IMG/VR virus record: IMGVR_UViG_3300045988_073791
Source: a virus
Strand: one strand, 5' to 3'
Length of the DNA: 40,084 nt
Both the position numbers and the translations under genes were made by a program. The notes under the pieces are model-generated. The model was given only the letters and a program-made list of their open reading frames with translations. It had not been told where the DNA came from and searched no databases. Below are positions 7,146 through 40,084 of the stretch, piece by piece; positions within the stretch are counted from its first letter, which is position 1, and the number at the start of each line of letters is the position of its first letter.

Positions 7146-7478
7146 ATGACAGAAAGACGATTTTTAAGATTTTACTACGCCGCTATAAAGCGGTACGGTG
7201 ATAAACGCTGGACTGCCCACCACGATGTAATAGAGTTTAACCCTAACTACACGGTGAGCGTTAGCGGTCTGGAGAAAGAAGATTTTGACTACAGGGACGA
7301 TAAGCCCTATGTAGTGGAGTTATCCAACGGCACTAAGTTTCTGTGCTTTTTCCACGGCTTCGGTGACGGGCTGGAGGATGAGATACTGAGCGCACGGGGC
7401 GAAGCCGCTAACAGCTATGTGGGCGATGAGTGCGTAGCGAAAGTAAAGAAGAACATTAACAAATTAAACCAGTATTGA
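7146..7478 (+). CDS. Hypothetical protein
   Basis: Compactly spaced between the polymerase and the next gene, which starts 2 nt after its stop codon. Confidence 0.6.
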   Translation: MTERRFLRFYYAAIKRYGDKRWTAHHDVIEFNPNYTVSVSGLEKEDFDYRDDKPYVVELSNGTKFLCFFHGFGDGLEDEILSARGEAANSYVGDECVAKVKKNINKLNQY

Positions 7479-7479
7479 T

Positions 7480-8142
7480 ATGTGCAAATTAACAAATGAA
7501 CAGATGCTGCGTTACTTCATATTTAAGGATTGCGGCTTTGATGAGGAAATAGCAAAGAAAAGTTATGATTTCGTGATGGGTAACGAACCGGAGCCACAGC
7601 CGGAGAGCAAACCGACTACCGAACTGGCAGACGGCATTTATCTGATGTACGGAAAAACGGCTGTGCCATATACCGGACAGGAAGTATCAGCACAGGGCTG
7701 TATTGGTGTAGGCGTAAAATTCGGCGGCAAATCGCTGGTGCTGGCATTGACCGACATAAGCGATGACGATGTAGAACTGACAACACAGCAAGGCGGCACA
7801 CGCTTTATTACCGACTACCACCGTGCCGCAGAGGACATGGACGGCAAAGCCGCCACAGACGATATACGGGACATTCTTAACATGGGTATCGCTGATGATG
7901 AGTATATACCCAGTCTGGGCGAACTGTATTTTATTCTGGCACACTTTACCCAGATTAACGCTGCACTGGAAGCCGTAGGAGGCGAACCGCTGCGTAATGA
8001 TTGGTACTGGAGCAGCACACAGTACAGCGCGACCTATGCGTGGAGTTTGCCCCTCGACGATGGCAGCGCGAGCAACGACACTAAGGCAGCGAGCCAGGGT
8101 CGAGTTAGGCCCGTTTCAGCATTTTTACCCCTAAACAGTTAA
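7480..8142 (+). CDS. DGR variable protein 2 (remote target), DUF1566/C-type-lectin-fold-like C-terminal domain
   Basis: The C-terminus IPSLGELYFILAHF...WYWSSTQYSATYAWSLPLDDGSASNDTKAASQGRVRPVSAF is paralogous to the 34405..35190 product. Its last ~100 nt match the TR. Confidence 0.85.
   Translation: MCKLTNEQMLRYFIFKDCGFDEEIAKKSYDFVMGNEPEPQPESKPTTELADGIYLMYGKTAVPYTGQEVSAQGCIGVGVKFGGKSLVLALTDISDDDVELTTQQGGTRFITDYHRAAEDMDGKAATDDIRDILNMGIADDEYIPSLGELYFILAHFTQINAALEAVGGEPLRNDWYWSSTQYSATYAWSLPLDDGSASNDTKAASQGRVRPVSAFLPLNS
8021..8121 (+). repeat. DGR variable repeat VR2
   Basis: A 101-nt alignment to TR 35781..35881 gives 13 differences, all at TR adenines. The 3' 22 nt tcgagttaggcccgtttcagca are identical. 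Confidence 0.9.
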
Positions 8143-8162: not shown

Positions 8163-8180
8163 GCCCGGCGAAAGCCGGGC
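8163..8180 (+). promoter_or_regulatory. GC hairpin with GAAA loop 41 nt downstream of VR2 (candidate DGR target-recognition element and/or terminator)
   Basis: gcccggc-gaaa-gccgggc forms a perfect 7-bp stem. Confidence 0.55.
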
Positions 8181-8195
8181 ATTAAATACCCAGAT

Positions 8196-8421
8196 ATGGA
8201 GATACGAGAAAAACAACTAACACTATTTCCAGAATTAGACCCACCAGTACCGGAGGGGGGTGCTATGTAGTATAGACCATGACAGAGCCAGACGGGCAAA
8301 ATGGCGGGTGTATTTCAAAAATGGAAATTACCGTGATGTCTGCGGCTGGTGCCTAAAAAGGTTTAAGGACGGCGGCGACAGTGCCGAGATAGTAGACAAA
8401 ATAGAAAAATTAAGAATATGA
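8196..8421 (+). pseudogene. Small Cys-rich ORF interrupted at a G6 tract, translationally coupled to the methyltransferase
   Basis: The ATG at 8196 (MEIREKQLTLFPELDPPVPEGG) runs into G6 at 8255..8260. The +1 frame then stays open (VLCSIDHDRARRAKWRVYFKNGNYRDVCGWCLKRF...KLRI) and ends in an ATGA overlap with the 8418 start. That frame contains no ATG. Confidence 0.35.
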
Positions 8422-9185
8422 GGGTACTAAGTTTATTTGACGGTATGAGTTGCGGGCAGATAGCGTTACGGCAGCTGGGCATTAAAGTAGACACCTACTA
8501 TGCCAGTGAGGTAGATAAATTCGCTATCGCCCAAACCATGCTTAATTTTCCCGATACTATACAACTGGGCGATGTGCGAAACATAGACGCACGGACACTG
8601 GGGCATATCGATTTACTGATGGGTGGAAGCCCATGCCAGTCTTTCAGTTTCGCCGGAAAGCGTGCCGGGATGAGTACGAAGCAGAACGAAGAAGTATATA
8701 CGCTGGAGCGGTATTTAGAACTAAAGCAGGCGGGCTTTGAGTTTGAGGGGCAAAGCTATCTGTTTTGGGAGTATGTACGGATACTGCAAGAGCTGAGAGA
8801 GAGTAACCCAAATGTCTATTTCCTGCTGGAAAACGTGGAAATGGGCAAAAAGTGGGAAAAGGTACTATCCGAGGCTATCGGACTGCAAGGCGTACACATT
8901 AACAGCGCATTAGTTTCCGCACAGATACGGAAACGCATATACTGGACTAACATACGCACAGCCCGGACGCTGTTAGGCGACTGTTACACGGACATTCCAC
9001 AGCCAGAAGATAGAGGCATACTGCTGCGCGATATTCTGGAAGATGATGCGGACGTAGACGAAAAATATTACCTATCCGATGAGGTAGTGCAGAAACTGTT
9101 AGAACACAAAAGGCGAAACGCTGAGGCCGGCAACGGCTTCGGGGCTGTTTTTCACAGCGGGGGGGGGGAAGATGCACGCACTTAA
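8418..9185 (+). CDS. DNA (cytosine-5)-methyltransferase, N-terminal half (motifs I-VIII)
   Basis: LFDGMSCG (I), GGSPCQSFSFAG (IV), FLLENV (VI) and SAQIRKRIYW (VIII). Confidence 0.85.
   Translation: MRVLSLFDGMSCGQIALRQLGIKVDTYYASEVDKFAIAQTMLNFPDTIQLGDVRNIDARTLGHIDLLMGGSPCQSFSFAGKRAGMSTKQNEEVYTLERYLELKQAGFEFEGQSYLFWEYVRILQELRESNPNVYFLLENVEMGKKWEKVLSEAIGLQGVHINSALVSAQIRKRIYWTNIRTARTLLGDCYTDIPQPEDRGILLRDILEDDADVDEKYYLSDEVVQKLLEHKRRNAEAGNGFGAVFHSGGGEDART
9159..9168 (+). repeat. G10 homopolymer near the 3' end of the first methyltransferase ORF
   Basis: Ten consecutive G counted in cacagc-gggggggggg-aagatg. Confidence 0.95.
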
Positions 9186-9227: not shown

Positions 9228-10058
9228 ATGAAAACAACCGTAGACCGGCTGCTGATGAACCTAAGAGGATACAAGGAAAAAGCATTTGCGCTGCTGGCAA
9301 CTTCTTACAAAGGCTCACAGGCAAACGGGGCGACATTAGTAATTTGCGATATGCCATACAGTGATATAATCTGCGTAGCCTCACGGGGCAGGATGATAGA
9401 CGGCAAAAACCGCCAATGTTTAGAACCGTGTCCGGTTGAGGGTAAAACGAACTGCCTAACCACAGTGGAAAAAGATAACCTGCTTATGCAGCGGCCGCAC
9501 GGTTACAATGCAGGTAAGATTTATACGGACAAAGCACCCACGCTGACGGCCAATGCGTGGCAGGAAAATAATTTGATTATGAGCAATAACACAAAACAGC
9601 TTAACCCAAGTGGCGAAAGCAATAACGGACAGCAACCGTACCAGCAAAACCGGGTGTACGACATTAACCACAAAGCCCCGGCGTGCTGCGCAAGTCTGAC
9701 AGGCGGAGCGTATGCGATAGCGGACGAAAACGCGCCGGAAGTACGCATTAGGAGGCTGACACCTACCGAGTGCGCACGGCTACAGACTGTGCCGGACTGG
9801 TACAAATGGGGATGCAGCAACACCCAGCAGTACAAGATGCTGGGCAACGGCTGGACTATCGAAGTAATAGCGCATATACTTTCATTCCTGCAACTGAAAG
9901 CACAGAAACACAAAGAGGAAATGGAAGCACCCAAACCGAGGAACTGCGGTAACTGTGCGCTTTGCATACATACCTATATGGGCAGCGAGTGCCAACTGAC
10001 CGACAACCCGGTAGGCGATGCGCAGGACGGCTGTATAGACTATATCCCGGAGGACTGA
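9228..10058 (+). CDS. DNA (cytosine-5)-methyltransferase, C-terminal half (target-recognition region plus motifs IX-X) with Cys-rich tail
   Basis: RRLTPTECARLQTVPDWY (IX) and YKMLGNGWTIEVIAHIL (X), with a C-terminal NCGNCALCIHTYMGSECQ...DGC tail. Confidence 0.8.
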   Translation: MKTTVDRLLMNLRGYKEKAFALLATSYKGSQANGATLVICDMPYSDIICVASRGRMIDGKNRQCLEPCPVEGKTNCLTTVEKDNLLMQRPHGYNAGKIYTDKAPTLTANAWQENNLIMSNNTKQLNPSGESNNGQQPYQQNRVYDINHKAPACCASLTGGAYAIADENAPEVRIRRLTPTECARLQTVPDWYKWGCSNTQQYKMLGNGWTIEVIAHILSFLQLKAQKHKEEMEAPKPRNCGNCALCIHTYMGSECQLTDNPVGDAQDGCIDYIPED

Positions 10059-23506: not shown

Positions 23507-26269
23507 ATGGCGGGCAAAAGCACTATTAGTATAACATTCAGACTGGACGGTGATAGCAAAGAGTTTAAGGAACTGACCACCGATGCGGCGGGGCTTAAAA
23601 AAGTCCTACAGTCCGCAATCGCCCCGGCAGAGAACCTTAAAAAGTCACTGATAAACTGGAGCCAAGGCGTACAGGCAATAGATGCCATTACGAACACGGT
23701 TAGTACCGTTTCGTCTGCTTTGTCGCAGTTTTCAGACCGCATGAAAGGTTTGCAGTCAGCAAACATAGCGATAACACAGCTGACCGGGAAAACAGGCGAG
23801 GAAATGGTAAAACTGCGCAGCAAGGTACAGGCGGTATCTGAGCATTTCGGTACGGATTTTAACGAAACGCTGCGGGCGGCAAATGCACTATCCAAAGGTT
23901 TTGGTATCAGCATGGAGGATGCTATGAAGCTGGTACAGGACGGTTTGGTTAGCGGCGCAAACGCGGGAGGCGATTTTATCGATACGGTCAGGGAATATCC
24001 GCGCTATTTCAAGGAGGCTGGACTATCGGCAGAGGATTTTATAGCCATAACCACCAATGCCGCACAGCAGGGCGTATTTTCCGACAAGGGCGTGGACGTT
24101 ATCAAGGAGGGTAATTTGCGTATCCGTGAAATGACCACTGCCACGGCTGACGCGCTTAACGGTATCGGCATATCTGCTGAGAAAGTACAGGCGGATTTGC
24201 AGGCCGGAAGTATAACCACCTTTGACGTTATGCAGATGGTTGCGGCGAAGCTGAACGAATTACCCGCCAGTAGCGCAGCCGTAGGCACTGCCATAGCCGA
24301 CATTTTCGGAGGCCCCGGAGAGGATGCCGGACTGGAGTACATAAAGACGCTGGCAAACATACAGCTAAACATGGATGCAGTCAAGGCGGCAACGCAGGGA
24401 ACGGCAGAGCAGCAGGAGCGGCAAATACAGATGCAGGAAAATTTGAAAAACGGATTATCCGGTTTAATTGATTTGTCCGCTATCTATACCGATGTCAAAC
24501 CCTATGTGGATTTGACCGCACAAATCGGCATGGCAGCTATGGGTGTCGGTGGGCTGATTAAGACGGTAAAGGCTATGAATGTGCAGCAGGCGATATTAAA
24601 GACCCGCATAGTGGCTGTGGCTGCTGCGCAGAAAATGGTTACTATCGCTACTACTGCGTGGACTGCCATACAAAAAGTGCTTAATCTGGTACTGACCGCC
24701 AACCCGATAGGCTTAATCATTACCGCTATCGGCGCACTGGTGGCGGGGCTGATAGCCGCTTATAAAAACTGCGATGGTTTTAGGAAAATCGTAGATAAGG
24801 TTTGGGAAGCCATAAAACCGCTGGCAAACGCTATAATGAATGGCCTGGCCAAGGCTTTCGAGTGGCTGGTAGAAAAGTGTAAGGAGGCATGGCAATGGCT
24901 TAAAAACATTCTGGGGCTGGGCAAACAAAAAGTGGAGGTGGCTGTAGATGTATCCAAGCCAAAGACACCGGCACCCAAACTGGATATGGATAAGCCCAAC
25001 GCCTCAGATTACACCTACACCCCTACTGCTGGAGCCGGGAAAGTGACCGGAGCGGCTAAACCGCAGTGGACGGAGGATGCCAGCACGCTAAAAGAAATTA
25101 CAGATAATGTCCAAATCCTTAATAACAAACTGCAAACAGCATCTGCCGAGGAAGCGGTACTGATTAACCAGCAGATAGAGTTATGGGAACAGAAAGCCGA
25201 TGCCATACGAAATGCCGGTAAGGCTACAGACGATAATACGCCACTGTGGAAAGAGGATGCCGATACGCTGCGTGAAATTAACGATAATATCCAAATCCTC
25301 AACGACAAATTACAGGACGCTACAGCCGAAGAAGCAGCGGCGATTAACCAGCAGATAGCGGCATGGAACGCCAAAGCCGAAGCCATTAAGAACGCAGGCG
25401 CAGCCGTGGATAATACGCCGCTGTGGAAAGAGGATGCCAGTACGTTACAGGATATAGGCGATAATATCCAAATCCTCACAGACCAGTTACAAACAGCCAC
25501 AGTAGACGAAGCCGCACTGATTAATCAGCAGATAGCGGCGTGGAATGAAAAAGCCGATGCCATACGGAACGCCGGGAAAGAGGCTGAAAAATCAGCAGGC
25601 AGTACGGGTAAAGCACTTATGCAGGGCTGGAGTGGTATTAAGGGTATAGGCAGCAGCATAGAGGGCATAACAAGCGCATTACAGGGTAACGGAAATGCGT
25701 GGCAAACAGTAGTGGGTATAGTGGACGGTTTTCTGGGGCTGTACCAAGGATTTCAAACGGTAATCCAGATTATCGGAACGCTGACCGGGGTAACTAATAT
25801 GCTGACCGCTGCGAAACAAAGCGAGGCTATAGCCACTGCCACGGCTTCGACCACGGCAGTAACGGGTGCAGCGCAGGAAATGGCAGCATCTGCGGCACTG
25901 GCAGCGACAAAGAACGTAGAAACGACTTCTAACGTGGCTGCTGCTGCGTCCGGTGCTTTGGCGGCACATTCCGGGATACCGTTTGTCGGTATCGCTTTGG
26001 GATTGGCCGCTGTGGCTGCTATTATCGCCGCTATGGCCTCACTGCCGAAGTTTGCAAAGGGCGGTATAGTTTCCGGGCCTACTTTGGCTATGGTTGGCGA
26101 GTATGCAGGAGCCAGCGGAAACCCGGAAGTTATTGCGCCACTGGATAAACTGCGCGGTATGCTGGCACAGCCCGCCAGCATGGATTTTAGCAAAGTGCGG
26201 TTTGAGATTAAGGGGCGCACGCTGGTAGGGATATTAGAAAAAGAAAGCGATTTAATTAAGCGTAACTGA
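23507..26269 (+). CDS. Tail tape measure protein
   Basis: 920 aa, follows the chaperone pair. It has helical and hydrophobic segments and three internal tandem repeats. Confidence 0.9.
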   Translation: MAGKSTISITFRLDGDSKEFKELTTDAAGLKKVLQSAIAPAENLKKSLINWSQGVQAIDAITNTVSTVSSALSQFSDRMKGLQSANIAITQLTGKTGEEMVKLRSKVQAVSEHFGTDFNETLRAANALSKGFGISMEDAMKLVQDGLVSGANAGGDFIDTVREYPRYFKEAGLSAEDFIAITTNAAQQGVFSDKGVDVIKEGNLRIREMTTATADALNGIGISAEKVQADLQAGSITTFDVMQMVAAKLNELPASSAAVGTAIADIFGGPGEDAGLEYIKTLANIQLNMDAVKAATQGTAEQQERQIQMQENLKNGLSGLIDLSAIYTDVKPYVDLTAQIGMAAMGVGGLIKTVKAMNVQQAILKTRIVAVAAAQKMVTIATTAWTAIQKVLNLVLTANPIGLIITAIGALVAGLIAAYKNCDGFRKIVDKVWEAIKPLANAIMNGLAKAFEWLVEKCKEAWQWLKNILGLGKQKVEVAVDVSKPKTPAPKLDMDKPNASDYTYTPTAGAGKVTGAAKPQWTEDASTLKEITDNVQILNNKLQTASAEEAVLINQQIELWEQKADAIRNAGKATDDNTPLWKEDADTLREINDNIQILNDKLQDATAEEAAAINQQIAAWNAKAEAIKNAGAAVDNTPLWKEDASTLQDIGDNIQILTDQLQTATVDEAALINQQIAAWNEKADAIRNAGKEAEKSAGSTGKALMQGWSGIKGIGSSIEGITSALQGNGNAWQTVVGIVDGFLGLYQGFQTVIQIIGTLTGVTNMLTAAKQSEAIATATASTTAVTGAAQEMAASAALAATKNVETTSNVAAAASGALAAHSGIPFVGIALGLAAVAAIIAAMASLPKFAKGGIVSGPTLAMVGEYAGASGNPEVIAPLDKLRGMLAQPASMDFSKVRFEIKGRTLVGILEKESDLIKRN
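25061..25590 (+). repeat. Three tandem ~177-180-nt (59-60 aa) repeats inside the tape measure gene
   Basis: Units start at 25061, 25241 and 25418 (P[QL]W[TK]EDA.TL..I.DN[VI]QIL...LQ.A...EA..INQQI..W..KA[DE]AI[RK]NAG). Confidence 0.85.
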
Positions 26270-31660: not shown

Positions 31661-32233
31661 ATGGCACGATACATTAAGGCAAACGGAAAGGTAGCGGAAT
31701 ACCTTAAATTAGAGAATGACCGTAATAAGGTTACGGACGGTAACTATCTGCTTTGGCAGGCTGATATGCTGGCTTTCGGCAGGCTAACCGAACTGCCGCA
31801 GATTTTGGAACAAATCGGCGGTCTGGCACTGCAAGCGCATGAAGCCAGAGAGGAACAGGACGGTACGGTAGTTAGAAAACTGCCTACTGCGACTGACCCC
31901 CGGTTTGTCGTAGAGGAAGCCAGAGAGGAACAGCAGCCGGGCAATATCGACACACCTACAGACGTGCCGGAAGCAGGTACGGACACGGATACGGAGGCAG
32001 GCGAAGAACCGGAAAGCCCGGAAGATGGGCAGGGCGAAATTACGGAGCAACCCGTAACAGAGGAACCGGGCGAAGTGACAGACCCGACCGATGGCCAGGC
32101 CACAGCATCCGAAGAAACCGAAACGGCAGACCCTGCACCGGAGGCAACGGAAGAAGCCGACCAGACGGAAGCCCCTACCGGCGATGATGAGGCAAAGACA
32201 GAAACGACCACTAACGAAGAAACGGAGGCTTAA
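31661..32233 (+). CDS. Hypothetical protein with highly acidic Thr/Glu/Pro-rich C-terminal half
   Basis: The C-terminal half is low-complexity. It shares an exact 34-nt segment with the 2004..2588 gene. Confidence 0.6.
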   Translation: MARYIKANGKVAEYLKLENDRNKVTDGNYLLWQADMLAFGRLTELPQILEQIGGLALQAHEAREEQDGTVVRKLPTATDPRFVVEEAREEQQPGNIDTPTDVPEAGTDTDTEAGEEPESPEDGQGEITEQPVTEEPGEVTDPTDGQATASEETETADPAPEATEEADQTEAPTGDDEAKTETTTNEETEA

Positions 32234-33286: not shown

Positions 33287-34420
33287 ATGGGTGTAAGCAG
33301 AACACAGGTAGTAAAGTTTATACGCAAGGGCGACCCCGGCGATAAAGGAGAGCAAGGCGCAACGCTTCGCGGCCCGCAGGCGTGGAGCGACTGCGCCGTA
33401 GGCTATAAATTCCAAGCCGGTAAGGTTGGCGAGCAGTGGATAGATGTAGTGCTGTATAATAACAATTACTACACCTGTATGAAGTCACACACCAAAACAG
33501 CATCCAATTATCCCGGCAGCACGACTGACTGGAATAACGGCTACTGGCAGCTGGGCGATAAAATACAGCTGGTGGCGACAAAGATACTGTTAGCCGCATA
33601 CGCACTGGTAGAAAATCTGGGGGCTACTGCTATCGAAATGAAAGACAGCAGCGGCAATGTGGTTTTCAAGGCAAAGGACGGTAATATAACCTGCAAGGTA
33701 GGTACGTTTGAAAATATCAAGGTGATAGGCTCACTGCGTAACCCGTTTGCCTATGTGGGCGACAGCATAACCAATGATTATAACGATAATGTGGTAATGA
33801 TGAGTAGTGGCGGCGGATGGATTGACGCCTATAGTCTGCCGTGGGATACAAAGCAAAGCGGACGGCGCATAACCATAGTAAACTACAAATGGGGCAGCAC
33901 TGTATCGCAAGGGCAGGCAGGTATCAACGCACCGACCGGAAAGTATTTCTACGAAGATGGCCTGCAAAAAGATGAGCTATTACTATCCCGTGAAGCAGTG
34001 GAGCTGATGGGGTACGGAACTTCTACGCAGTTTTACGGCTGGATAGTGATGCGGCGTATAGACCTTGTAACGACCAATAAATACGGGCGACCGTTAAAGA
34101 TATTGGCGTATGGGTCTGTTACTTCTGGTGGCAGTATTACTTATTCCACATTTGACAAATCCACGCTGCGAGTAGCCAAAAATGCTACCGGGCAGTACAC
34201 TATTACCATGCCGTCCGGATGGTTTTATGCAGCCAGCAATGTAGGCGTAATGCTAACAGGTGTGGGGCATTCGTCCGGAAGCTCAGACGCACCGATTAAA
34301 GCGACTTTGATTTCCCGAACCACTACACAACTGGTTATTAAAACGTCCGATGATGCGAGTGTGAACGATGGGGCATTTGATTTTATGATATTCAATAAAA
34401 ACGATTGGATGACCATTTAA
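33287..34420 (+). CDS. Tail fibre protein candidate with short collagen-like stretch
   Basis: KGDPGDKGEQGATLRGPQ G-X-Y triplets near the N-terminus. It overlaps the start of DGR target 1. Confidence 0.65.
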   Translation: MGVSRTQVVKFIRKGDPGDKGEQGATLRGPQAWSDCAVGYKFQAGKVGEQWIDVVLYNNNYYTCMKSHTKTASNYPGSTTDWNNGYWQLGDKIQLVATKILLAAYALVENLGATAIEMKDSSGNVVFKAKDGNITCKVGTFENIKVIGSLRNPFAYVGDSITNDYNDNVVMMSSGGGWIDAYSLPWDTKQSGRRITIVNYKWGSTVSQGQAGINAPTGKYFYEDGLQKDELLLSREAVELMGYGTSTQFYGWIVMRRIDLVTTNKYGRPLKILAYGSVTSGGSITYSTFDKSTLRVAKNATGQYTITMPSGWFYAASNVGVMLTGVGHSSGSSDAPIKATLISRTTTQLVIKTSDDASVNDGAFDFMIFNKNDWMTI

Positions 34421-35190
34421 CAGATAAAGATATGGCGAAGAAAACAAAAACTTTAGGAACAGTTACGACAGTAACGAGTATGAACACGTCACAGTACATA
34501 CCGCTAACCGATAGCAGCGGCAACGTGACAAAAATAACGCTGGCAAACCTCAAAGCATCTTTGCTGGCTGGTCTGAACCTCAACGCAATGAATGACGGCG
34601 TATTTATCATGTTTCACAGAAAGAGTGATAATTACCCGCTGGCAGTCAAGCCGGACAAATGGGCAAGTTACCAGAACAGCGGCGAGATAGCGGAGGGCGT
34701 ATTAGTCGTAGAGGGCGGCAAGATGCTGGTAGTAGCACCCACCGAAGCTACGCTGTACTGGAGTAGTGCGGCGGTAAGTGCAGGCGGTAAGACTACGAGC
34801 GACCGACTAACCGCACTGGATGACTGGGCAGGAAAGACCAGCACGGCTGCGCAGATTACGCACAACGAATGTAAGACGGAAAGTTATGCGCCGGGCTTCT
34901 GTGCCTCTTATTCCAGAACCAACGCAAACGGCAAAGGACTGACCGCCGGGCGATGGTGGCTACCGTCTTTGGGTGAGTTGATGATGATTTATGCGAATAT
35001 GCGTAAAATCAATTATGCCCTATCGCTGATTAACGGAGCGACCCAGTTAGCCGAAACCGCATACTGGAGTAGTACCGAGTCCAGCGCGATCGATGCGTGG
35101 GATTTGTACCTCAGCAATGGCGACGCGCACAACGGCACTAAGGCAACGTACCAGTATCGAGTTAGGCCCGTTTCAGCATTTTTGAATTAA
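34405..35190 (+). CDS. DGR variable protein 1 (tail-module target), DUF1566/C-type-lectin-fold-like C-terminal domain
   Basis: LPSLGELMMIYANM...AYWSSTESSAIDAWDLYLSNGDAHNGTKATYQYRVRPVSAF, with the 3' 101 nt matching the TR. An alternative start is ATG 34432 (MAKKTKTLGT). Confidence 0.88.
   Translation: MDDHLTDKDMAKKTKTLGTVTTVTSMNTSQYIPLTDSSGNVTKITLANLKASLLAGLNLNAMNDGVFIMFHRKSDNYPLAVKPDKWASYQNSGEIAEGVLVVEGGKMLVVAPTEATLYWSSAAVSAGGKTTSDRLTALDDWAGKTSTAAQITHNECKTESYAPGFCASYSRTNANGKGLTAGRWWLPSLGELMMIYANMRKINYALSLINGATQLAETAYWSSTESSAIDAWDLYLSNGDAHNGTKATYQYRVRPVSAFLN
35078..35178 (+). repeat. DGR variable repeat VR1
   Basis: A 101-nt alignment to the TR gives 12 differences. Eleven are at TR adenines and one is C->T (TR 35793 / VR 35090). 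Confidence 0.9.
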
Positions 35191-35217
35191 TAGTTAATTG
35201 TTAGACTTTAACCTTTA

Positions 35218-35237
35218 TGTGCGGCGGTAGCCGCACA
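35218..35237 (+). promoter_or_regulatory. GC hairpin with GGTA loop 39 nt downstream of VR1 (candidate DGR target-recognition element and/or terminator)
   Basis: tgtgcggc-ggta-gccgcaca forms a perfect 8-bp stem. Confidence 0.55.
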
Positions 35238-35283
35238 AGACATAGAAATTTCCATTTACCCGCTATAGAGCAAAATTTGAGAT

Positions 35284-35664
35284 ATGAATAAATCAAAACT
35301 GGTATCAAACACGCAGATATATTTAGACTGCCGTAAACTGTTAGACGAAATTCTGGATATTACGCCTAACTTTCCGAGAGCCTACAAGTTTAGCGTAGGC
35401 AGCAAGATGCACGACATAGGCGTAAATCTTATATCCGAAATATCGGCGGCCTACATAAACCGGGATAGACAAACCCGTATCCAGCATTTGGTAAATTTCC
35501 AGTCGCAGTTTGAAGTATTGAAAACTTTGCTGCGCATAGCGGGTGAAAGGAAATGGATATTAGGCAGAAGCAGGCACGCAAATATTATCGAACTGACGGA
35601 CGCGATAGGCAAACAGTCTACTGCGTGGAAGAACTCACTATTAAAAATTATCAGCAATGTATAG
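35284..35664 (+). CDS. avd: DGR accessory variability determinant (Avd-like four-helix-bundle protein)
   Basis: 126 aa, basic and helical, positioned between the target gene and the TR/RT. Motifs such as FPRAYKFSVGSKM resemble the four-helix-bundle (23S rRNA-IVS protein) family. Confidence 0.8.
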   Translation: MNKSKLVSNTQIYLDCRKLLDEILDITPNFPRAYKFSVGSKMHDIGVNLISEISAAYINRDRQTRIQHLVNFQSQFEVLKTLLRIAGERKWILGRSRHANIIELTDAIGKQSTAWKNSLLKIISNV

Positions 35665-35780
35665 CGAGTAAATGCCAGATTTGGAAAGTTACGACTAACC
35701 GAGCGTGCAAGTTATCTGTAAAAATGGGCTGCGCACTATCTTTTATAGTTAAGACCAAGTAAGAGCGGCACGAAGTTGCG

Positions 35781-35881
35781 AGTACAGCGCGACCAATGCG
35801 TGGAATTTGAACCTCAACAATGGCAACGCGAACAACAACACTAAGGCAACGAACCAGAATCGAGTTAGGCCCGTTTCAGCA
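35781..35881 (+). repeat. DGR template repeat (TR), non-coding RNA template
   Basis: Intergenic. By my count it has 36 A in 101 nt. Read in the target frame it gives YSATNAWNLNLNNGNANNNTKATNQNRVRPVSA, Asn AAC/AAT-rich. It matches VR1 and VR2. Confidence 0.9.
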
Positions 35882-35922
35882 CTTTTTCAGATGAACCGAC
35901 ACACTAAGTAAGATAAAAGGAT

Positions 35923-37107
35923 ATGGTTACTACGGACGGATTGTTAGAAGCATATTTTGACTGCCGCAAAAGTAAGCGGAGAACAGCCAGTGCCATTATG
36001 TACGAAATAGACTACGGTAGCAAGTTAATAGCACTTCGCGACCGTATAAATGACCGTACCTATCGCCCCGGTAAGTCTATCTGTTTTGTCGTAACGCGCC
36101 CACGGTATCGAGAAGTATTTGCGGCTTCTTTTGAGGACAGAATAGTACATCACTGGATAGCCCTACGGCTGGAGCCGCTTTTTGAAGAAGTGTTTAGCCC
36201 ACGCACGTTTAACTGCCGGAAAGGCAAAGGACAGATGTACGGTGTTACGATGCTGCACAACGACATTAAGGAGTGCAGCCAGAACTATACCCGTGACTGC
36301 TATATAGCGAAACTGGATTTGCAGGGCTTCTTTATGTCTATAAACAAAGCCATGCTGGCTGAAATGATAGACAAATTTATACTGGAGCGTTACAAAGGTG
36401 ATGACATAGAGGATTTGCGTTTCCTTTGCCGGGTGGTTATCCTGCACAGTCCGGAAAAGAGCTGCGAAAGACACAGCCCACTGCATTACTGGGATTATCT
36501 ACCTGCAAACAAATCGCTGTTTACAAACGGCGAGGGTCTGGGCGTGGCGATAGGTAATCTGTTTGCGCAGCACTTCGCAAATTTCCTGCTTAACATTTTG
36601 GACTGGTATCTGCTAAATGATTTGGGCTTTACCTATGTCGGCAGGTATGTAGATGACTTCTATATACTGGATACCGATAAGCAGAAGATATTAGCCGCTG
36701 TACCGAAAATCCGGGAACTGCTGGGCAAATACGGTCTGACCCTGCACCCGCATAAATTCTATATCCAGCACTACACCAAAGGCGTAGAGTTTACCGGGAA
36801 CGTGGTTAAAAAGCAGCGGATATATGTTTGTAACCGCACGCTGAAAAACTTTGTTATGGCAGTCCGCAGACTGAACCGGGCAGAAACCATAGAGGAAGTA
36901 GAGCACGCAGTTAGCAGCATTAATAGTTATCTGGGCTTCATGCGGCACGCCAACGAATACGGCAAGCGGCGCAAAATCCTAAAGATGCTGGAGCCGCACG
37001 TATTTAAGTGGGTCTATATCCGTGGCCACTTTGAAGTAGTGGTAATCAAAAAGAAGCACCGGCGAAGAACAATAACCCTACAGCGTATTAGAGATGGAAC
37101 ATATTAA
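35923..37107 (+). CDS. DGR reverse transcriptase
   Basis: RT motifs PRYREVFAASFEDRIVHH, AKLDLQGFF, GVAIGNLFAQHFANFLL and GRYVDDFYIL. It is 394 aa and adjacent to the TR. Confidence 0.93.
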   Translation: MVTTDGLLEAYFDCRKSKRRTASAIMYEIDYGSKLIALRDRINDRTYRPGKSICFVVTRPRYREVFAASFEDRIVHHWIALRLEPLFEEVFSPRTFNCRKGKGQMYGVTMLHNDIKECSQNYTRDCYIAKLDLQGFFMSINKAMLAEMIDKFILERYKGDDIEDLRFLCRVVILHSPEKSCERHSPLHYWDYLPANKSLFTNGEGLGVAIGNLFAQHFANFLLNILDWYLLNDLGFTYVGRYVDDFYILDTDKQKILAAVPKIRELLGKYGLTLHPHKFYIQHYTKGVEFTGNVVKKQRIYVCNRTLKNFVMAVRRLNRAETIEEVEHAVSSINSYLGFMRHANEYGKRRKILKMLEPHVFKWVYIRGHFEVVVIKKKHRRRTITLQRIRDGTY

Positions 37108-39817: not shown

Positions 39818-40084
39818 AATCTTTGCTTTGTTTTTGCTGCTTTATAGCTGAAAAATGTCCCCAAATGTACCATAATCTACCATATTAACACCCACCAGCA
39901 ACCACTTTTTAATGTTAATTATCTTATTTGCTTAACTGAAATTTTGCTGACTTTATTTTATAATCGGCTGATATATTGCAGTTTATACAAAATCAAACAC
40001 TATTAAAAATGCTACCAGCGGCTATATGCCTAACTATATAAATGGGATTATTTTAACACACTATAAATCAGTAAGTTAATAACT
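39818..40084. promoter_or_regulatory. AT-rich attP-like region (continues into 56..90 across the circular junction)
   Basis: Non-coding, next to int. It has an imperfect direct repeat, ttatttgcttaactgaaattttgctg (39924..39949) and ttatttgctgaaaatttgctg (64..84). Confidence 0.45.
40030..40084. repeat. Terminal direct repeat, copy 2 (identical to 1..55)
   Basis: Exact 55-nt match to the window start. The window ends exactly at the repeat end. Confidence 0.95.

Follow-up and report, generated by a model that had tools for sequence, protein, structure and literature searches.

Closest described systems

Phages F1, F2 and F4 of Bacteroides uniformis (the Bacuni phages, after their provisional genus) carry a diversity-generating retroelement (DGR) whose two targets lie, respectively, next to its core and far from it (Hedzet, Rupnik and Accetto 2021, PMC8143477). 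Each target is a DUF1566-type protein in which the variable repeat (VR) takes up roughly the final 35 codons. For these proteins the authors obtained confident Phyre2 matches to 4eps, and differences in the VR adjacent to the reverse transcriptase (RT) track host range (PMC8143477). In Bordetella phage BPP-1 the order is mtd-VR, avd, template repeat (TR) and brt. Published DGR target hairpins have a GC stem of 7-10 bp and a 4-nt GRNA loop, and the reported distance between VR and hairpin ranges from 4 to 34 bp (PMC3240598).

Organization of the DGR

The DNA analyzed here (the window, 40,084 nucleotides) is a complete circular genome of about 40 kb. Judged from its sequence, it very probably contains a complete, most likely active DGR of the BPP-1 type in a temperate, Bacuni-like siphophage of Bacteroidales. 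The phage is a gut Bacteroides phage, and the DGR apparently diversifies the tips of two of its proteins. The four components named in the original prediction (target with VR1, avd, TR and RT) were each located at the positions given there. The element had been confined to 34405-37107, which is wrong because a second target sits 27 kb away. The features identified are listed below.

7480..8142, + strand: target gene 2, remote; 220 aa, pI 4.3; carries VR2
8021..8121, + strand: VR2, second variable repeat of the same TR; 13 mismatches to TR, all at adenines, all non-synonymous
8163..8180, + strand: hairpin past VR2; GC-rich GCCCGGC-GAAA-GCCGGGC, 7-bp stem, GAAA loop
34432..35190, + strand: target gene 1, adjoining the DGR core; 252 aa from ATG 34432; C-terminal DUF1566/Lcl_C-like domain carries VR1
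35078..35178, + strand: VR1, variable repeat; 12 mismatches to TR, 11 at TR adenines, all non-synonymous
35218..35237, + strand: hairpin/cruciform past VR1; GC-rich TGTGCGGC-GGTA-GCCGCACA, 8-bp stem, 4-nt loop
35284..35664, + strand: avd, accessory variability determinant; 126 aa, pI 9.9; Pfam bAvd E 9.4e-30
35728..35769, + strand: tentative stem-loop in the avd-TR spacer; RNAalifold, 12 relatives
35781..35881, + strand: TR, template repeat; non-coding; 101 nt, 36 of them A; read in the target frame, 11 AAY codons
35923..37107, + strand: DGR reverse transcriptase; 394 aa; Pfam RVT_1 E 3.5e-16

Comparison with the Bacuni genomes (GenBank MT635598 and MT806185-7) revealed the same order of tail genes, target, avd, TR, RT, amidase and integrase, the same combination of one core-adjacent and one remote target, a nearly identical TR (L001), a GC hairpin with a 4-nt loop past the VR, and a genome of about 40 kb with similar GC content. 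However, the DGR proteins are 75-80% identical at the amino acid level (in phage F2, 75% for RT, 80% for Avd and 79% for target 1, whose counterpart is BacuniF2_00008), and the upstream 377-aa fibre-like protein has a C-terminal part that is unrelated past residue 151. At the nucleotide level, megablast gave about 78% identity to F1/F2/F4 over 41% of a 20-kb query. The ICTV guideline for a genus is about 70% nucleotide identity across the full length. From these identities and the unrelated C-terminal part of the fibre-like protein, the phage is taken to be a different species from the Bacuni phages, possibly of a different genus. Closer uncultured relatives are present in IMG/VR, with RTs of 96-98% amino acid identity.

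A 'TR-containing gene' is annotated in phage F2 and has no intact counterpart in the window. An ORF across the TR was rejected here, as that frame has no start codon until 35808, and the 69-aa ORF at 35553-35762 was also rejected as a gene. Searching the whole window at Rfam gathering thresholds returned zero families, and no tRNAs were found in it.

The likeness to BPP-1 extends to the order target-VR, avd, TR and RT, to adenine-specific mutagenesis of AAY codons, to the 3'-terminal placement of the VR in its target gene, and to a GC-rich hairpin past the VR whose 4-nt loop is of the GRNA type (PMC3240598). Unlike BPP-1, the locus has one TR for two targets, a DUF1566/Lcl_C-like domain instead of Mtd, and hairpins separated from the VR by about 40 nt, where that of BPP-1 follows the VR directly. 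The spacing between TR and RT start is only 41 nt. The TR-RT spacer of BPP-1 is about 140 nt, and if a spacer RNA element of such a length exists in this locus, it would have to overlap the RT coding sequence.

RT and Avd

A homology search, which had been proposed as a check beforehand, led from the RT to RVT_1 and to BPP-1 bRT (8ub7, E 5.8e-24), the best solved structure, and from Avd to Pfam bAvd at 103.7 bits, well above the cut-off of 40. The RT matches bRT far better than it matches group II (group II intron RT, 2e-5) or retron RTs. The criterion used for a DGR RT was a catalytic YxDD together with the motif-4 signature [ILV]GxxxSQ. The catalytic residues are not lost, since YVDD is intact within YVDD(F) at residues 242-246, and motif 4 at residues 210-216 reads IGNLFAQ (IGSLTSQ in bRT), with Ala replacing the canonical Ser. 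Among 29 sequences (the window and 28 relatives), AQ is found in 24 and SQ in 5, and on this comparison AQ in motif 4 is a lineage variant.

With NCBIfam, Avd reached 37.9 bits against DivGenRetAVD, under the cut-off of 80, and the RT matched models of group II introns, retrons and Drt, with scores well short of the respective cut-offs. NCBIfam apparently holds no DGR-RT model.

Target proteins

Target 1 closes the tail module, directly past the fibre-like protein. Its start had been placed at TTG 34405, overlapping the upstream gene, which is probably wrong; ATG 34432, 11 nt past the upstream stop, is likelier because all close homologues are 252-253 aa long. The upstream protein had been described as a collagen-motif tail fibre. 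It contains no more than four G-X-Y triplets (GDPGDKGEQGAT) and has no family match. Target 2 starts 1 nt past the stop of the ORF at 7146-7478, which itself follows a family-A DNA polymerase gene. It is paralogous to target 1 along about 190 residues (32% identity, E 8e-22) and lacks the roughly 60-aa N-terminal segment of target 1.

The C-type-lectin-like fold of the original prediction is putative, and the DUF1566/Lcl_C matches in its favour are borderline: against the Pfam Lcl_C cut-off of 34.9, target 1 scored 34.1 bits (E 3.6e-8) and target 2 scored 24.5 bits. PF07603 is precomputed on all 120 closest target 1 homologues. AlphaFold2 models of the targets were unusable (mean pLDDT 36.5 and 46.5), the alignments of 121 close homologues being deep but not diverse. 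Sequence and profile searches of the PDB with the targets gave non-significant matches only (4eps, E 0.06-0.17; 8q4e 'HbP1', E 0.027), and the literature on HbP1/DUF1566 yielded nothing beyond papers about human HBP1, which is unrelated. Like the Bacteroides pilin-tip targets (BACOVA_04982, PDB 4eps) and Legionella LdtA-type DUF1566 proteins, the targets have WxPSxGEL...YWSST ahead of the variable segment. Unlike the pilin-tip targets, they are short phage proteins with neither pilin body nor lipoprotein signal, and their 4eps matches fall below significance.

TR, VRs and associated hairpins

Alignment of TR and VR1 reproduced the 12 mismatches reported originally, 11 at TR adenines and one C>T. 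Rather than being spread over all four TR bases, the mismatches are adenine-specific in both VRs (VR1, p = 3e-5, hypergeometric test given 36 A in 101 nt; VR2, 13/13 mismatches at adenines, p = 3e-7). All 25 mismatches of the two VRs fall in codon positions 1 or 2, and each is non-synonymous; the TR adenines number 17, 14 and 4 at codon positions 1, 2 and 3. Read in the target frame, the TR gives YSATNAWNLNLNNGNANNNTKATNQNRVRPVSA, exactly as had been stated, and the claimed "twelve" Asn AAC/AAT codons were counted as 11 AAY codons. VR1 encodes the final 33 residues ahead of the C-terminal FLN. The target stop follows 12 nt after the end of VR1 in target 1 and 21 nt after the end of VR2 in target 2.

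Exactly three copies of the 21-nt 3' anchor are present in the window, where chance would give 0, and the third copy is VR2. Adenines in the last 21 nt of the VR hardly ever change, with two changes in about 120 adenine sites across relatives. Homology between TR and VRs runs on to 35886, and position 35882 is C in the TR and T in both VRs. The same holds in the window and relatives together, where every VR has T at position +1 past the repeat and every TR has C there.

The hairpins lie 39 nt (VR1) and 41 nt (VR2) from the VRs, slightly past the published range of 4-34 bp (PMC3240598), although in stem and loop they agree with the hairpins described for DGR targets. Every relative whose TR/VR pair could be identified has a hairpin 39-42 nt past the VR. 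The stems of the relatives covary (GGTACGGC/GCCGTACC, AGTACGGC/GCCGTACT), and no hairpin was found after the TR in the window or relatives. A simple terminator scan flagged neither VR-proximal hairpin, and because no T run follows either of them, they are not read as canonical intrinsic terminators.

The avd-TR spacer shows 0-1 differences from two relatives (L003 and L010). Its stem-loop, obtained with RNAalifold from 12 relatives, has an invariant 5-bp hairpin enclosed by an outer helix, two pairs of which covary (CG/UA/UG), and may tentatively be regarded as a 5' element of the DGR RNA. For the region from avd through TR to the RT start, the RNAalifold covariation term was weak (-0.69 kcal/mol), with few compensatory pairs.

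Hypervariability among relatives and status of the element

Over 24 distinct TR/VR pairs (the two of the window and those of relatives), TR adenines account for 358/366 mismatches (97.8%), and the TR itself hardly varies among relatives. In L010 it is identical while the VR differs at 17/101 positions, and against L003 the target 1 gene is 0.3% diverged outside the VR and 16.8% within it. Homologues at E<=1e-5 number 3715 for target 1 and 1471 for target 2. Analysis of the 120 closest, near-identical homologues per target revealed that the variability is concentrated precisely on the residues encoded by the 11 AAY codons, with an entropy of 2.4-3.5 bits there and about 0.12 bits in the remainder. 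This set of 11 positions is also the hypervariable one in the 120 homologues of target 2, and target 2 is as hypervariable among public relatives as the tail-module target 1. The DGR reading agrees with the adenine-specific mismatches, with the intact RT of DGR type and the Avd, with the hairpins on the target side, and with a hypervariability confined to AAY codons. Against it speak the C>T mismatch of VR1, AQ in RT motif 4, the NCBIfam score of Avd and the distance of the hairpins from the VRs. Divergence restricted to the VR, together with the AAY-confined hypervariability among public relatives, suggests indirectly that the element is most likely active.

The three repeats might instead be plain paralogues, C-terminal domains in which point mutations built up without any retroelement, given that the target proteins are paralogous over about 190 residues. 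However, the proteins are only 32% identical outside the VR, whereas each 101-nt VR shares 87-88% identity with a TR that is non-coding, and this TR is flanked by RT and Avd. Plain paralogy is refuted because the mismatch pattern is base-specific, nearly all mismatches being at adenines, and we give it virtually no credence. A DGR that was recently inactivated, so that the VR differences record past activity of the lineage and diversification has now stopped in this genome, would be compatible with the one non-adenine mismatch of VR1, since C>T is of a type expected to build up once homing ceases, and with AQ rather than SQ in RT motif 4. But this AQ is common to most of the sequences compared (24/29), each of which has a distinct adenine-mutated VR, and one non-A change in 202 nt of VR is negligible. 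With RT, Avd, TR, the VR 3' ends and both hairpins intact, inactivation is considered very unlikely.

For an active BPP-1-type DGR, a mechanism can be proposed in which cDNA synthesis, homing, hairpin function and the binding of receptors are inferred from knowledge of the BPP-1 family. RNA across the avd-TR-RT region would be reverse-transcribed by the RT-Avd complex, which would misincorporate opposite template adenines. The mutagenised cDNA would then replace VR1 (35078-35178) or VR2 (8021-8121), and the TR would never be overwritten. The VRs, not the TR, may be marked as recipients by the invariant 3' 21 nt, the T/C difference beyond it and the GC-rich hairpin ~40 nt downstream. In this process the eleven AAY (Asn) codons would be randomised with stop codons never arising, and each of the two DUF1566-like paralogues would thereby gain a diversified C-terminal surface for ligand binding.

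Roles of the two targets

Target 1 is probably a host-recognition protein, and its suggested role as the receptor-binding tip may find indirect backing in the work on the Bacuni phages (PMC8143477). It is doubtful, though conceivable, that one or both targets are something other than receptor-binding tail tips, such as diversified adhesins for non-host ligands like mucus or glycans; in that case target 2 may not belong to the virion and could be a product made alongside the replication genes. Neither target matches tail-fibre families, and the sole PHROG match is phrog_4245, of unknown function. Target 2 is acidic, has no counterpart of the N-terminal segment of target 1 and sits beside the DNA polymerase region, and Bacuni F1 and F2 infect one host despite 15 SNPs in the secondary VR (PMC8143477). 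These points are opposed by the position of target 1 at the end of the tail module, next to the fibre-like protein, and by Bacuni F1 and F4, whose hosts differ and between which 18 of the 24 SNPs fall in the RT-adjacent VR (PMC8143477). The narrower proposal is that target 2 is a diversified binding protein that acts inside the cell or is expressed early, and that it might track a variable host factor or defence protein. It draws on the start of target 2 near the DNA polymerase, its pI of 4.3, the missing N-terminal segment, its being as hypervariable as target 1, and the unaltered host range of Bacuni phages with changes in the corresponding VR. We regard this proposal as quite unlikely. If it were true, one TR would serve two different purposes in a phage DGR.

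Conceptually the element is nothing new, because both its layout and a suggested connection with host range were already described in 2021 for F1/F2/F4. It adds a complete, well-delimited two-target DGR (TR, two VRs, two hairpins, Avd and RT) from a Bacteroidales phage group that is widespread. Natural VR variants, available by the thousands in public data, make a handy data set for the mutational spectrum of DGRs and for selection on AAY positions, and the lineage permits a test of the role of a DGR target that lies beside replication genes.

Template and variable repeats

A 21-nt anchor (CGAGTTAGGCCCGTTTCAGCA) was found in three exact copies in the window, starting at 8101, 35158 and 35861, against a chance expectation of none, and a repeat search of the window clustered the anchor sites as one repeat family of about 122 nt. 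The diversity-generating retroelement (DGR) comprises the following features:

7480-8142, target 2, a remote ORF carrying variable repeat 2
8021-8121, variable repeat 2 (VR2)
8163-8180, hairpin after VR2, GCCCGGC-GAAA-GCCGGGC, 41 nt downstream of VR2
34432-35190, target 1 ORF, carrying variable repeat 1, upstream of the avd ORF
35078-35178, variable repeat 1 (VR1)
35218-35237, hairpin after VR1, TGTGCGGC-GGTA-GCCGCACA, 39 nt downstream of VR1
35284-35664, avd (accessory variability determinant) ORF, 126 aa, pI 9.9
35781-35881, template repeat (TR), 36 A in 101 nt
35923-37107, reverse transcriptase (RT) ORF, 394 aa

Ungapped comparison with the TR, anchored on the common 3' end, revealed 12 mismatches for VR1 (one C>T, the other 11 at TR adenines), in agreement with the original prediction, and 13 for VR2, all at TR adenines. 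Given the adenine content of the TR, the hypergeometric probability of this bias is 3e-5 for VR1 and 3e-7 for VR2. Translated in the target reading frame, the TR reads YSATNAWNLNLNNGNANNNTKATNQNRVRPVSA and contains 11 AAY codons, not the twelve counted originally. All 25 mismatches of the two VRs are located at codon positions 1 or 2 and change the amino acid. The TR/VR homology extends five bases beyond 35881, with one consistent difference there (C in the TR, T in both VRs). The components predicted within 34405-37107 are all there; the element as a whole extends outside that interval, as its second target lies at 7480-8142.

Reverse transcriptase and Avd

The predicted RT and Avd ORFs are both present, and homology searches, which had been proposed as a check, identified each of them. 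The RT matches Pfam RVT_1 (E = 3.5e-16), with an intact YVDD at residues 242-245, and its nearest solved structure is the DGR RT of Bordetella phage BPP-1 (8ub7, E = 5.8e-24), while the solved group II intron and retron RTs gave E-values of 2e-5 or worse. Motif 4 is IGNLFAQ (residues 210-216), in which Ala takes the position of the Ser usual in DGRs (SQ, IGxxxSQ). Among the 29 sequences compared, AQ predominates (24, namely the window plus 23 relatives), and the remaining five relatives have SQ. Avd matches Pfam bAvd with 103.7 bits (cut-off 40) and falls under the cut-off of the NCBIfam Avd model, which is stricter.

Target proteins

The two targets are paralogous across about 190 residues (32% identity, E = 8e-22). 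Their matches to Pfam Lcl_C (formerly DUF1566) are both under the cut-off of 34.9 bits (34.1 and 24.5 bits), their AlphaFold models are of very low confidence, and sequence search of the PDB obtained no significant match for them (4eps and 8q4e were non-significant). The C-type-lectin-like fold of the original prediction is accordingly only putative. Target 1 had been predicted to overlap the upstream gene, starting from TTG 34405. Because its close homologues are 252-253 aa long, ATG 34432, which is 11 nt past the stop codon of that gene, is the preferred start, and the overlap is therefore probably not real.

Target 2 begins a single nucleotide (1 nt) beyond the stop codon of the ORF downstream of the polymerase gene. 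Its product is acidic (pI 4.3) and is missing the N-terminal 60 residues of target 1, and in the published phages of Bacteroides uniformis (the 'Bacuni' phages) changes in the remote-target VR leave host range unaffected (PMC8143477). On these grounds, target 2 may have a non-virion role.

The 377-aa protein encoded upstream of target 1 (33287-34420) contains a short collagen-like run (GDPGDKGEQGAT) and is conserved with phage F2, one of the Bacuni phages, over the first ~151 residues only (77%). In many relatives the nucleotide alignments are interrupted from about 33330-33700 to about 34417. Judging from these alignments, this looks like a modular swap of the fibre C-terminal domain beside the DGR target.

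Hairpins downstream of the variable repeats

Both VRs are followed on the 3' side by a GC-rich perfect hairpin with a 4-nt loop, a feature on which the original prediction was silent; no comparable hairpin was found 3' of the window TR. Among the related loci with an identifiable TR/VR pair, all VRs have such a hairpin 39-42 nt downstream, and none of the TRs has one. The stems show compensatory differences among loci (GGTACGGC/GCCGTACC, AGTACGGC/GCCGTACT, GTACGGC/GCCGTAC), the loops are GGTA, GAAA, GCAA or GATA, and no T run follows the VR1 or VR2 hairpin. The experimentally defined target-recognition element of BPP-1, also present in other phage DGRs, has a 7-10 bp GC-rich stem and a 4-nt loop of consensus GRNA and lies 4-34 bp from the VR (PMC3240598). 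By analogy, the VR hairpins are its putative counterpart, although their distance from the VR is slightly greater in the window.

The avd-TR spacer is nearly invariant among relatives, apart from an insertion of ~14 nt in three related loci (L001, L018, L025). A stem-loop with two covarying pairs is possible at 35728-35769, just upstream of the TR.

Variation among related loci

Scanning IMG/VR with the window RT yielded 28 related loci, 72-98% identical at the amino acid level. Pooling 24 distinct TR/VR pairs, the two of the window among them, gives 366 mismatches, of which 358 (97.8%) fall on TR adenines (A>G 198, A>T 102, A>C 58). The adenines of the conserved Lys codon show no changes in this set, those of the 3' 21 nt show two in about 120 sites, and the TR is nearly invariant among relatives. 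Divergence between the window and its closest relatives is concentrated in the VR (see the table).

Differences between the window and its two closest relatives
L003: target gene outside VR 2/646 (0.3%); VR 17/101 (16.8%); TR 3/101; avd-TR spacer 1/116
L010: target gene outside VR 10/646 (1.5%); VR 17/101; TR 0/101 (identical); avd-TR spacer 0/116 (identical)

Searching a collection of 5.8 billion proteins at E <= 1e-5 gave 3715 homologues for target 1 and 1471 for target 2. The best 120 for each target are nearly all singleton 90% clusters, and the positions without a majority residue are precisely the 11 AAY positions in both targets (entropy 2.4-3.5 bits with 9-16 residue types, compared with ~0.12 bits elsewhere). 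VR polymorphism, the population-level test named in the original prediction, is thus seen, in the spirit of that test, among these best homologues. Such confinement of hypervariability to AAY positions is what continued mutagenic homing within the lineage would leave behind; it falls short of proving activity in this genome itself.

In seven loci (L009, L013, L014, L017, L021, L022, L026) the TR and the VR alike contain one additional TGG (Trp) codon, giving AACTGGAAY, and the TR of L020 has about 39 nt duplicated internally; TR length therefore co-evolves with the VR in the lineage.

Genome organization and relationship to Bacteroides phages

Bases 1-55 and 40030-40084 form an exact terminal direct repeat of 55 nt, which marks the window as a closed circular contig of about 40,029 bp. 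It is a complete phage genome, with the following gene order:

HTH regulator (- strand)
DUF2800 nuclease, Enc34-type SSB, family-A DNA polymerase
small ORF, then target 2
C5-methylase ORFs, VapE-type primase/helicase, SNF2 helicase
terminase, portal, protease, capsid
tape measure, tail proteins
target 1, avd, TR, RT
amidase, tyrosine integrase (- strand)

Several further features were observed. A ~167-nt unit occurs three times in tandem at 25052-25575 (68-78% identical, spacing 177-180 nt) within the tape-measure gene (23507-26269). A 43-nt repeat (2183-2225 and 32083-32125, 93% identical), coding for an acidic PTDGQATASEE segment, is common to two otherwise unlike ORFs, one located upstream of the replication genes (2004-2588) and the other within the tail module (31661-32233); no family match was found for either. 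The neighbouring ORFs 8418-9185 and 9228-10058 match positions 1-227 and 203-319 of the 324-position C5 cytosine methylase profile; they are either pieces of one methyltransferase that has been split or interrupted, or two genes in their own right.

Megablast against GenBank phages matched only the B. uniformis phages F1, F2 and F4 (identity about 78%, covering at most 41% of a 20-kb query). The annotated region of F2 has the gene order of the window, and its DGR proteins are 75-80% identical in amino acids. Related RTs were also found in Bacteroidales MAGs, one of them on a contig of 213 kb, as would fit a prophage. Two RT relatives with 84% amino acid identity (L030, L031) come from short contigs in MAGs classified as Eubacteriales and Elusimicrobiaceae; because the other hits are all Bacteroidales, these are probably phage contigs assigned to the wrong bin, not a sign of a broader host range.

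Interpretation of the element

The DGR interpretation of the locus is supported, and a BPP-1-type DGR is the best explanation of the element. Divergence of ordinary paralogues is ruled out by the base-specific pattern of the mismatches. An inactivated DGR relic is unlikely, because every component is intact. The steps of cDNA synthesis and homing are presumed from what is known of the family.

The DGR of F1, F2 and F4 was reported as complete and confirmed with myDGR, with two targets bearing DUF1566 motifs (one adjacent, one remote), VRs spanning about the last 35 codons and adenine-specific TR/VR differences, and its RT-adjacent VR correlates with host range (PMC8143477). The window DGR is a diverged relative of this published Bacuni phage element. 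Covariation in the hairpin stems and the large set of natural VR sequences are useful, though not surprising.
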